NCBI GenBank assembly: GCA_964342185.1
Contig: CAYFER010000008.1
Location: 12,415-76,414 of the forward strand
Source of the DNA: an uncultured Vicinamibacteraceae bacterium
GTDB taxonomy: Bacteria > Acidobacteriota > Vicinamibacteria > Vicinamibacterales > UBA8438
Reading direction: 5' to 3'
Length of the DNA stretch: 64,000 nucleotides
The position numbers were made by a program. Shown here one piece after another: positions 12,001 to 15,000 of this stretch. Position 1 is the stretch's first letter, and every line of letters begins with the position of its first letter.

Positions 12001-15000
12001 TCTCTGAGGACCTGTACATTACGTTAGCGACGTACGACCTCAGTAATCAGACAGCTGCGTTTCAGATTACCGTAAATCCACTAGTGAATTGGATCTGGTT
12101 TGGGTTCGCGATTATGGCGCTTGGAACTGGTATCGCACTGTTGCCAGAGAGTCGGCTGGCTTTTATAGCGGCAAAGGTTCCTGAAGGAGCAGCCACAACG
12201 TCGGTTCTTCTTGTGTCATTGTTTTTGACCGGATTGGGAACAACGGTGCACGCTCAGATTGCCGTTCCGAATGGGGCTGAGTTAACAACTGAGCAGAAAC
12301 AACTGGAAGCCGAGTTGCAAGAGGAACTCGTTTGTGTCTGTGGCAGTTGCTCTCATCTGCAATTGTCAACCTGTACATGTTCAACCGCGGATGATATGCG
12401 TCTCCGGTTGAATCAGCAGGTCTCACTGGGCCGCGACCGCGATGGGGTTTATCAACATTTTATCGACACCTACGGAAGTCAGGAACCTATCGGCGCGCCA
12501 ATAGGCGCATTTAATCAACTGTCTTGGTTGTTTCCGATGTTGGTCGGTGGTGCCTGCCTGGCTGGCGTCGGTTTTGTTGCACTCCGCTGGTCGCGACGTG
12601 GCTCGGAGTTTCAGGAGTCGGAGGCTTCTCTCCCTGCAGCCGGAAACGATGTGCAGTTAGAAGCCAGGTTGGACGATGAACTCCGAAACCTCGACTGATA
12701 GAAGTTCTTTCCGGCCGTGGCACCTCTTTGTGTTGCTGGGTCTTTTGGCTTCCACTGTAGCTGTTGTGCTTGTGCAACCCGGTGATCCGGTTGTTCTAGT
12801 TTTGTTGGTTGCCGCAATTGGATCGGCGTCTGGCGTTGGCTTTGCCCTTTGTCGAACATTGTGGCCGCTTGTGGGAATCCACGCAGAAGATCAGGTCAAG
12901 GTCATTGGAGGTCGGACTAGAGCCGCGATTGAACGAGAGAAAACCTTGGTCCTGCGATCGATTAAAGAGTTGGAGTTCGATCGGGCCATGGGCAAGGTGT
13001 CGAAGCCGGATTTTGACGTCATGAAGGTACGCCTAAGGAGCCAAGCACTGGCATTGATCAAGAAACTTGATGCCGACATGCCCGGTTACCGTGAGGCAAT
13101 TGAGCAAGAACTTGTAACACGATTAGCGGACAATTCCCAGAATGACGGACTGTCAAGAGAACGAGTTGTTCAGCAGGACTTTCTGACTTGTGAAAGCTGT
13201 GGAACTGTAAATGACATTGACTCGAAGTTTTGTAAACACTGTGCTTCGCCAGTAAACGGCAATACGGAGTGAATGGACTGATGCGGCGGGTGAGTTGGTG
13301 GCTCTCGATTTGTATTGGGGTGCTGTGTGTAGTTCAACTAGGAGCCCAACCAGATCCGCGCCAAATGTCCGGACTTCCCTTGCCCGACCCAGCACTACCG
13401 GACGGAACTATTACCGTCAGGGTTATTCGCGGGCAGATTACAAATAACGTCCCAGGCCAGGCTGTCGAATTACGGCAAGGAGATGTTGTCGAGACGGCCA
13501 TTACCGACGCAGAAGGTCGAGCGACATTCTTGACCTTGAACCCTGGTCAGCAGGTTCAGGCTTCGACAGAGCTTGATGGTAGCCAGTTGCAGTCACAGAT
13601 GTTTAATGTTCCTGGTCGTGGAGGTATTCGCCTGATGTTGGTTGGGGCTGATCCAGACAACCCAGAGCTTCCTGCGCAGTTGGGTACGGTTACCTTGGCG
13701 GGTGAGTCATGGATACAGGTGGAATTAATTGAAGAGAGTATAGAGGTTTATTATTTTCTTGAGGTTATCAACAAGACTGATACACCCGTGGATCCGTCGA
13801 CGCCGATCACGTTTGATCTTCCGAATGGAGCGGTCGGCACGACCGTCATGCGAGGATCGTCTCCCACGACGCTGCTAGATGGCCGAAGAGTGGAACTGCC
13901 GGGTCCGTTTGCTCCGGGGGCTACGCCGTTACACGTGGCTTACATATTGCCGTATTCAGGTGCGAATCTTGTTCTTTCTCAAAGTTTTCCAGTTGACCTA
14001 GAAGCACTGCTGATCTCGGTTGAGCAGTGGGGTGATATGGACGTTCAATCATCGCAGATCGATCGGCGGATGGAACTTCCTTCTGACCAAGGAAATGGGA
14101 CGCCGTACATGCTTGGTGCCGGTCCGCGTATTTCTGTTGGTCAGGACCTGTTGGTTGAGTTGGTGGGGTTGCCTCACCGTAGTACTATGCCGAGTACGAT
14201 CACATTAATAATGTCTGGTGCTATTTTTGGGTTTGGCTTTTGGGGGGCTTTGGGTAAGCGAGAGACTGCTTTAGAGGTCAAGCGGCGTGCGATATTGGAA
14301 ACCCGCAAGGAAAAATTGTTTACTGATCTCGTCAAAATTGAGCGTCAACATCGTTCTGGAAAAATTGGATCAACCAAACACACTTCGAGACGAACAGAAT
14401 TGATCGATGCTCTCGAACGGGTCTACCGGGAGCTTGATGAACAGTTGACGGCAATGCTCATCAGTTCGGGAAGGACTCGGGAGTCGCATTCTGTGGAATC
14501 CCCGGGTACGGCTGGTTAAACTCCTCGGAGGCTTGTGTTCGACTTCGACCATCTTACGATCGATGATGTTTCGCGTTACTATGGCCGACGACGTGCGCTG
14601 AGCCATGTGTCATTTGGGCTTCAACCGGGTGAACTGGTTGGGCTACTCGGTCCAAACGGTGCTGGAAAGTCAACGTTGCTCGGCGTTCTGGCTGCCCTCA
14701 TTCGTCCGTCGTCTGGGCGCGTTATTTACGGTAATTACAGCGGGAGCCACTCCACTTCTGCGCTAAGAGAGAGTATCGGGTTTTTGTCCCACGACTTACA
14801 GCTCTACGCAGAATTGACAGCGCGCGAAAATCTTGAATTCTTTGCTGGGTTGTACGGTTTAGATAATCCGTCAGAACGCGCGACCAGCGCTCTTTCCCAC
14901 GCTGGCCTTGGGCGACGCGAAAACGATGTTGTGGACAGTTATTCGAGAGGCATGCGCCAAAAGCTGGCTCTCGAACGCACCTTGCTACACGACCCTCGAC

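Follow-up and report, generated by a model that had tools for sequence, protein, structure and literature searches.

Two putative CcmI-related membrane proteins in the cysteine-type cytochrome c maturation operons of Acidobacteriota

CcmF and CcmH associate with CcmI in a complex in the System I pathway of cytochrome c maturation; the N-terminal part of CcmI (CcmI-1) has two transmembrane (TM) helices and a cytoplasmic loop, and its tetratricopeptide repeat (TPR) domain chaperones the apocytochrome (PMC3884852). A "leucine-zipper-like" cytoplasmic segment of CcmI-1 is known from Rhodobacter, whose CcmI has been reported to bind apo-CcmE in addition to apocytochrome (PMC3884852). The variant called System I*, from Desulfovibrio and archaea (reviewed, with reference to Allen 2006 and Goddard 2010, in PMC3601427), has a CxxxY-type CcmE, no ccmG in the operon and the gene order ccmE-F...A-B-C-D, with a CcmI-like factor described as helpful; CcmI there raises cytochrome production and is not essential (PMC3601427), and archaeal CxxxY systems function with CcmABCEF alone (PMC9084895). 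Here we describe two open reading frames, ORF1 and ORF2, in an operon that shares these features of System I*. They were found in a stretch of 64,000 nucleotides (the window, to which all coordinates refer) from contig CAYFER010000008.1 of an uncultured bacterium in the order Vicinamibacterales, phylum Acidobacteriota (genome of 2.78 Mb, 95.5% complete). ORF1 (12676..13272) and ORF2 (13269..14519) sit between a ccmF-ccmH fusion and ccmA, all densely packed on the plus strand.

An earlier note on this DNA had proposed that the two proteins are a split, non-TPR functional analogue of CcmI. We find that neither protein has a TPR match in Pfam and that both carry a segment homologous to the CcmI N-terminal part (CcmI-N), so that "analogue" understates the relationship; the functional replacement is still something that we infer. 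Very probably, the two proteins are conserved subunits of the Ccm machinery and share homology with CcmI-N. That they are integral subunits of the acidobacterial machinery with cysteine-type CcmE (System I*), together replacing CcmI, we hold with a probability of roughly 0.6, and the specific division of labour between the two, set out below, stands at slightly better than even odds. Genetic work on Rhodobacter by Sanders et al. (2005 and 2007) reportedly assigns support of the CcmF/H complex to CcmI-1 and the chaperoning of apocytochrome to CcmI-2.

A CcmI-type module on both proteins

ORF1 is predicted to be a membrane protein of 198 amino acids, CcmI-N-like, with a zinc ribbon at its C-terminus, and more than 3600 matches were found for its family. 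Two hydrophobic helices (residues 14-32 and 38-60 by hydropathy, 14-32 and 38-67 in the AlphaFold2 model; 12715..12855) form a TM hairpin whose short loop, QPGDP, is periplasmic; the two termini, including the conserved N-terminal sequence MSSETSTD..FRPWHLF, are cytoplasmic, and the protein has no periplasmic domain. Next comes a cytoplasmic helix-turn-helix (residues 77-134; 12904..13077), modeled as helices 77-104 and 110-134 with a turn between them and a third helix after them, which bears the CcmI-type motif REKTLVLRSIKELEFDRAMGKVSKPDF...LD. The invariant residues of this hairpin in the homologue alignment include R87, E88, K89, K97, E98, L99, F101 and D102. At the C-terminus (13189..13242), a cytoplasmic CxxC-x10-CxxC element has four cysteines, C172, C175, C186 and C189, that do not vary among 50 homologues, as expected of a zinc ribbon. 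Pfam zinc-ribbon models (PF13240, PF13248, DZR) reach only sub-threshold scores of about 19 bits on the protein itself, and most of its homologues have precomputed matches to them. A Foldseek search with the ORF1 model returned no match under an E value of 0.3 and nothing other than zinc knuckles.

ORF2 ends in a comparable arrangement. After a signal peptide and an all-beta periplasmic region (residues 38-299), a single TM helix (residues 307-328) leads into a cytoplasmic helix-turn-helix (residues 334-405, modeled as helices 334-362 and 368-405; 14187..14483 for TM helix and hairpin) with the motif RKEKLFTDLVKIERQHRSGKIGSTKH...LD. Confidence in the AlphaFold2 model of ORF2 is high (mean predicted local distance difference test, pLDDT, 91.6). 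The earlier note had assigned a coiled coil to each protein. Its TM pair and Cys4 ribbon in ORF1 hold up, as do the signal peptide, beta-rich periplasmic part and TM helix of ORF2, but the supposed coiled coils are helix-turn-helix hairpins, because the modeled helices break at a conserved G-K-[IV] turn.

The same note had seen a motif common to the two cytoplasmic segments. Pairwise BLASTP of the helices is not significant (E 1.4), and direct comparison of the ORF1 family profile (A2) with the ORF2 family profile (A1) by hhalign is weak (E 0.0047, probability 7%), but at the profile level the resemblance becomes significant once a profile of phylum-wide ORF1-like proteins (A3, for which a homologue search across proteins gave at least 27 matches) is included. 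A3 matches A2 at 99.8% (E 1.7e-27) and A1 at 95% (E 3e-8, on the ORF2 hairpin at 335-396), and it is because of these intermediates, not of the direct comparison, that the link between ORF1 and ORF2 is clear. A3 also matches a profile of canonical acidobacterial CcmI (A4) at 96% (E 4e-9) over 76 columns, which span a TM helix with a P-L-L motif and the cytoplasmic helix, and through A3 the ORF1 hairpin falls in register with the cytoplasmic segment of canonical CcmI.

The curated CcmI N-terminal model of NCBIfam, TIGR03142 (cut-off 29.3 bits), gives a similar picture. It is the top NCBIfam match for six of nine distant ORF1-like proteins (E 1e-5 to 0.1), and those of three genomes, G204, G153 and G175, exceed the cut-off with 34.6, 33.3 and 30.4 bits; in the latter two the protein also bears a zinc ribbon and its gene comes after ccmH. 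TIGR03142 is likewise the top or near-top match for seven of ten C-terminal pieces of ORF2 proteins, including the one from the window, where it is the top match at 14.1 bits (E 0.042), under the cut-off. A profile restricted to the TM helix and hairpin (A5) matches the ORF2 C-terminus of another genome, G157, with an E value of 1.6e-8. Judged from these profile comparisons, the shared motif is real and homologous, a CcmI N-terminal module present twice with the signature L-x-E/D-L-E/D-x-D-x-x-x-G-K-x-S-x-x-D-Y/F, and it is the counterpart of the leucine-zipper-like cytoplasmic segment of CcmI-1. By the same sequence comparisons the relationship of ORF1 to the CcmI N-terminal module is one of remote homology, not merely of analogy, and ORF1 is probably a divergent, TPR-less CcmI-N descendant consisting of a membrane anchor and a cytoplasmic helical segment. 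It is arranged as TM-TM-helix; only one TM helix was present in the ancestral form, and the extra N-terminal one was gained in the Vicinamibacterales. The likeness to the two-TM CcmI-1 module that had been suggested for ORF1 thus survives as remote homology, but the arrangement is not TM-loop-TM, and the module is on ORF2 too.

Comparison with CcmI itself (also known as CycH, and corresponding to the C-terminal part of E. coli CcmH) brings out both sides. In CcmI, as in the pair, a TM helix ending in P-L-L/F is followed by a cytoplasmic helix with the signature L-x-E-L-E-x-D-x-x-x-G-x-[IL]-S-x-x-x-Y, recognized here by TIGR03142 and by the 96% hhalign match via intermediates; the gene comes right after ccmF/ccmH, there is one per ccm system, and docking on CcmF/H is presumed. 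Unlike CcmI, the pair has no second TM helix leading to a periplasmic TPR domain and no TPR, and each of its two proteins has its own copy of the module. Further elements of ORF1 are the cytoplasmic Cys4 zinc ribbon and, in the Vicinamibacterales, the extra N-terminal TM helix, while the periplasmic part is on ORF2, lies N-terminal to the TM helix and consists of two beta-sandwiches.

Distribution across the phylum and the type of CcmE

Members of the two families (1435 representative clusters at E <=0.001 in the case of ORF2) that we saw named were called hypothetical or "zinc ribbon domain-containing". The gene order ccmE-ccmF(H)-ORF1-ORF2-ccmA-B-C(-D) is kept in all 24 genomes of the same order, and ORF1 and ORF2 have the same place in each of the 80 loci examined in species-representative genomes, where the only deviations are truncations at contig ends. 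These 80 are the best by ORF1 alignment and Vicinamibacteria-like; with the 24 same-order genomes they make up 104 close loci. Farther away, a search with the ORF1 profile found an ORF1-like gene between ccmF/ccmH and ccmA in 20 of 20 distant acidobacterial loci, so the position is conserved across the phylum down to about 25% sequence identity. Distant ORF2-like proteins align with ORF2 at 99.7% (hhalign, E 4.7e-26, 329 columns) and are homologous to it phylum-wide.

Three states occur among the distant loci. In the first, an ORF1-like protein with one TM helix, hairpin and zinc ribbon is accompanied by an ORF2-like protein; in the second (family f36), the ORF1-like protein lacks the zinc ribbon and an ORF2-like partner is present; in the third, an ORF1-like protein of 94-113 amino acids is encoded alone, immediately before ccmA. 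The zinc ribbon is absent from the short ORF1-like proteins of other families. Family f36 has its ccm genes in separate places: the ORF1-ORF2 pair stays beside ccmF-ccmH, away from ccmE and ccmABC, a location that ties it to the heme-ligation module and not to the ABC (ATP-binding cassette) exporter.

Two loci from outside this set may be recorded here. An unclassified bacterium (GCA_046160485.1, 2498-10283) has the order ccmE, a CBS-domain gene, ccmF, ccmH, ORF1-like, ORF2-like, ccmA, ccmB, ccmC and an ORF of 52 amino acids; the ORF1-like protein has 198 amino acids and a zinc ribbon, the ORF2-like protein has 434 amino acids, and the CBS-domain gene between ccmE and ccmF is an extra one. A metagenome-assembled genome of Nitrospinota (GCA_048550035.1) encodes at 6001-6384 a zinc-ribbon protein of 127 amino acids (P0450) with a weak ORF1-like match (E 8.8e-5); the gene is outside a ccm operon, and about 6 kb downstream the contig ends in a CcmF_C gene fragment.

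Co-occurrence was assessed in 301 evenly sampled Acidobacteriota genomes with the A5 profile and the Pfam CcmE model. A5 matched, in one copy, in 166 of the 208 CcmE-bearing genomes (about 80%) and in three of the 93 without CcmE, all three of which are only 68-77% complete; the other 90 had neither. The association has a Fisher p value of about 1e-39, which is not corrected for phylogeny. Every CcmE encoded next to an ORF1-like gene (91 of 91) is of the CxxxY type, the window's sequence being AKCPSKY. The few genomes with a canonical CcmI (family f38, 109-117 bits to TIGR03142) have an HxxxY CcmE (AKHDENY) and the classical order ccmA..C..E-F-G-H-I; the pair thus goes with the cysteine-type CcmE and not with the histidine type. 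The test proposed in the earlier note, whether orthologues co-occur with CxxxY-type ccmE operons, therefore has a positive outcome for the Acidobacteriota.

Both systems occur together in G258, a genome from the window's family: a System I* operon with ORF1 and ORF2 and a classical System I cluster. The latter (C1, 5066700-5086600) contains ccmA, ccmC, an HxxxY CcmE, ccmF, ccmG and a CcmH of 212 amino acids, at whose C-terminus is a short CcmI-like motif, YAELEADYRAGILTEHQW.

The tie to one type of CcmE allows another explanation, that the pair is an adaptor specific to cysteine-type CcmE. The ORF2 ectodomain would then dock Cys-type holo-CcmE or handle heme transfer at CcmF/H, and so offset the different chemistry of a heme-CcmE with a thioether link. 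The uniform CxxxY type of the neighboring CcmE, the presence of canonical CcmI in the HxxxY genomes and the reported binding of apo-CcmE by Rhodobacter CcmI (PMC3884852) are all in line with this idea. On the other hand, the ectodomain offers no conserved His, Cys or Met as heme-ligand candidates anywhere in the family, many CxxxY operons have a small ORF1-like protein with no ectodomain partner, and archaeal CxxxY systems run on CcmABCEF alone (PMC9084895). We consider such an adaptor unlikely.

The ORF2 ectodomain and a possible mechanism

The periplasmic region of ORF2 is modeled as two beta-sandwiches. Domain 1 (residues 38-126; 13380..13646) is a sandwich of 7-8 strands, which the earlier note had called CarboxypepD_reg-like. 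The support for this from the window's protein is weak (PF13620, E 0.007, 17.2 bits against a cut-off of 32.3), but five of eight distant members of the family match the same model, at best with an E value of 1.4e-6. Domain 2 (residues ~135-300; 13671..14168) is a larger sandwich, modeled with pLDDT >90, whose likeness is to Ost1/ribophorin I and to the N-domain of M1 aminopeptidases and of LTA4 hydrolase. Searches of PDB sequences with the ORF1 and ORF2 family profiles gave just zinc-ribbon and Ig-like noise.

Directly after the cleavage site of the signal peptide is a conserved linear peptide, QPDPRQMSGLPLPDP (residues 27-40; 13347-13390), in which P28, M33, G35 and P39 are nearly invariant within the order. 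Three ORF2 relatives of 643-780 amino acids (P0291, P0382 and P0389) have two to four tandem CarboxypepD_reg-like domains, each copy preceded by MPDPxxxSGxPLP, and keep the C-terminal TM helix and CcmI-like hairpin.

The absence of ccmG from the operon could suggest that ORF2 takes the place of CcmG, or of CcmH, in reducing the CXXCH cysteines of the apocytochrome. As its only cysteines, C15 and C20, are within the signal peptide, the mature protein is cysteine-free, and a thiol reductase is for that reason excluded. TlpA/ResA-like thioredoxins with WCGPC are encoded elsewhere in the genome and a CcmH domain is fused to CcmF, and we give a thiol role of ORF2 practically no chance. With no conserved Cys or His, the ectodomain bears no redox or heme-ligand signature.

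In the Foldseek search of the PDB the top seven matches of ORF2 are structures of Ost1/ribophorin I (E 3e-10 to 1e-7, probability 1.0), followed by the N-terminal beta-domains of LTA4 hydrolase and M1 aminopeptidases, which align over roughly 200 columns with E values near 1e-4 and a root-mean-square deviation (rmsd) of 5.5-7 A. Ost1 and the M1 N-domains both contact extended peptide substrates. Ost1p/ribophorin I, of the eukaryotic oligosaccharyltransferase, has the same layout as ORF2, with a signal peptide, two extracytoplasmic sandwiches, one TM helix and a cytosolic helix, and the machines of which both proteins are part modify polypeptides that are unfolded and exported via Sec. They differ in their partner enzymes, and ORF2 has no Pfam Ribophorin_I match and no sequence similarity to ribophorin. 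The likeness is, as far as the models go, a resemblance in fold and architecture and not one of membership.

This resemblance invites the suggestion that the pair is a ribophorin-I-like coupling module, with hairpins and zinc ribbon on the ribosome/SecYEG or on CcmA and with the sandwiches catching the emerging apocytochrome, to couple export to ligation or to regulate it by a cytoplasmic signal. Besides the seven Foldseek matches and the common architecture, the size of the zinc ribbon, which recalls ribosomal L40e/L32 and protein-binding zinc knuckles, and the location of the genes between the ccmF/H and ccmA modules in most genomes could be cited for it. The low TM-scores given below, the want of sequence similarity to ribophorin, the many ORF1-like proteins without a zinc ribbon and the f36 pair beside ccmF/H, not ccmABC, speak against it, and we think it quite unlikely. 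Still less probable is the bolder version, in which the pair corresponds, in bacteria, to ribophorin I/Ost1: on leaving SecYEG the apocytochrome would be caught by the sandwiches, a cytoplasmic four-helix bundle made of the two CcmI-type hairpins would dock, with the zinc ribbon, on the translocon/ribosome or CcmA, and ligation would be coupled to export. If that were true, the CcmI N-module would be a general cytoplasmic docking device, in classical System I as well.

We return to the reading that we prefer, that ORF1 and ORF2 are integral Ccm subunits that together replace CcmI. A number of results count against it. The ORF1 of the window has no TIGR03142 match even at E <=10, and direct comparisons with the canonical CcmI profile are weak (A2 against A4, E 0.036; A1 against A4, E 0.0036; probabilities 1-9%, in the same register), so that the homology to CcmI depends on intermediates; the matched segment is moreover short and helical, and composition could inflate the scores. 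Among the CcmE-bearing genomes of the co-occurrence sample, 42 of 208 (20%) have no detectable ORF1-like gene. Many operons have the small ORF1-like gene only, and in those lineages the ORF2 ectodomain must therefore be dispensable. There is no conserved Cys, His or Met pattern in the ectodomain across the family. The TM-scores of ORF2 with Ost1 are only 0.29-0.32 (rmsd >20 A), perhaps due to inter-domain orientation, and beta-sandwich matches are promiscuous. None of the 104 reference loci carries a fused ORF1-ORF2.

Candidate fusions of the two genes were seen among homologues. Among apparently in-frame cases such as P0242, P0249, P0262 and P0320, P0242 and P0262 are each on one metagenome contig; P0047 and P0264 are frameshift read-throughs, and long open frames at same-order loci are out-of-frame, GC-rich artefacts. 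Because they are single-contig sightings with no case in the reference loci, we did not count fusions as evidence of interaction.

The weakness of the direct comparisons, the non-significant BLASTP of helix against helix and the annotation of both proteins as hypothetical could also mean that these are hitchhikers, unrelated envelope proteins in a ccm operon whose helical similarity to CcmI is compositional. We find that highly improbable given the strict positional conservation across the phylum and the tight correlation of presence with that of CcmE. The intermediates reach 96-99.8% in hhalign and pass the curated CcmI cut-off, and the alignment extends beyond the charged helix to the P-L motif and the TM helix.

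The pair is conserved, related to CcmI-N and equipped with beta-sandwiches where CcmI has TPRs, and it is therefore probably the CcmI-equivalent of System I*. In the mechanism that we propose, the TM/hairpin modules of ORF1 and ORF2 would dock on the heme-ligation core of CcmF and CcmH in the manner of CcmI-1 in Rhodobacter, and the two hairpins might pair to form a cytoplasmic four-helix bundle. The ORF2 ectodomain would take the role of the TPR domain, holding unfolded apocytochrome, and perhaps CcmE, by the active site of CcmF/H. ORF1 would be a minimal form of CcmI-N to which a zinc ribbon has been added, and ORF2 would be anchored through the second CcmI-N module. We infer the docking on CcmF/H and the apocytochrome binding by analogy with CcmI; the pairing of the hairpins, like any role given to the zinc ribbon, is a suggestion. 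A parallel may be seen in NrfG, a TPR paralogue of CcmI in the NrfEFG system, which is accessory to a CcmF-type heme lyase (NrfE) and is thought to present a specific apocytochrome. NrfG is, however, a soluble or anchored TPR protein without beta-sandwich, zinc ribbon or duplicated CcmI-N hairpin.

The operon, the host genome and wider meaning

The two ORFs had been described as interrupting a set of ccm genes, and Pfam and NCBIfam searches confirm the neighbors, all on the plus strand. The operon begins with ccmE (9667..10119; Pfam CcmE, E 1.5e-18), of the cysteine type, with C121 of the CxxxY motif visible in the translation. It is followed by a protein of 827 amino acids (10215..12698) with matches to Cytochrom_C_asm, CcmF_C and, at residues 682-798, CcmH (E 1.1e-9). 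Downstream of ORF2 are ccmA (14535..15242; NCBIfam CcmA models, E 1e-37 to 1e-40), ccmB (15287..15973; Pfam CcmB, E 9.6e-25), ccmC (15970..16644; TIGR01191, E 4.4e-30) and a ccmD-like ORF (16703..17002), which is kept in 64 of the 80 related loci. The last is unusually long, at 99 amino acids, and its match to TIGR04391 (CcmD_alt_fam, E 3.9e-4) is below the cut-off and confined to residues 59-92.

In the CcmH domain fused to CcmF, CVCGSC-x7-CTC (12333-12380; CcmF residues 707-722) replaces the canonical LRCxxC. Cys-rich CxCG(x)C...CxC motifs also occur in related acidobacterial CcmH, separate or fused (CTCGTC..CGC and CDCGC..CAC in loci L144 and L147). Thus, in contrast to System I* as described, CcmH is present here, fused to CcmF and with a Cys-rich CxCxxC...CxC motif, and the slot of CcmI is taken by the ORF1/ORF2 pair.

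As the earlier note had it, ORF1 overlaps ccmF by 23 nucleotides and 15 nucleotides separate ORF2 from ccmA. The GTGA overlap that it described between ORF1 and ORF2 is present in the sequence, but the GTG at 13269 is probably not used as a start. ORF2 would have 416 amino acids from this GTG and has 412 from the ATG at 13281, which we take as the probable start because of a GGAG at 13266-13269, upstream of it, and because gene calling gives its close homologues P0001 and P0002 a length of 412 amino acids, with the starts MRRVSWW and MPRLSLL. With that start the junction would be a gap of 8 nucleotides and not a GTGA overlap, and the coupling would still be tight.

Only one ccm cluster is present in the genome, and neither ORF1 nor ORF2 has a paralogue there. 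The observation that the operon has no TPR-containing CcmI extends to the genome, where canonical CcmI queries found none and the best match to TIGR03142 is an unrelated RmuC-like ORF at 11 bits. Two TPR proteins, on contigs C6 (~6300-8000, minus strand) and C11 (~50900-52600, plus strand), were considered as a hidden CcmI and rejected, as they have lipoboxes, no CcmI-N and only a generic TPR match; they are paralogous, of about 565 amino acids, with lipoprotein-type N-termini (AGCTSS and SACTSS). ResB, and with it System II, was not found in the genome beyond a ResB-like stretch within CcmF. Roughly 46 exported CXXCH candidates emerge from a crude count, among them ORFs that contain five and eight motifs. 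With one ccm cluster, no System II and these candidates, the operon is the only recognizable route of cytochrome c maturation in this genome, and it has substrates.

We found no paper that describes the ORF1 or ORF2 proteins, and none that names CcmI together with a zinc ribbon. Of the subunits that make up the heme-ligation complex of System I, CcmI is understood least, and System I* has been described as stripped-down. Across a whole phylum, if our reading is right, the CcmI slot is taken by a minimal CcmI-N-like protein, often with a beta-sandwich partner that has a second CcmI-N module. This would define the conserved core of CcmI as one TM helix and a cytoplasmic hairpin, and would show the TPR domain to be replaceable or dispensable. 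It would also offer two candidates, both small and testable, for subunits missing from System I*, and the profiles permit the annotation of thousands of proteins now called "hypothetical" or "zinc ribbon domain-containing".

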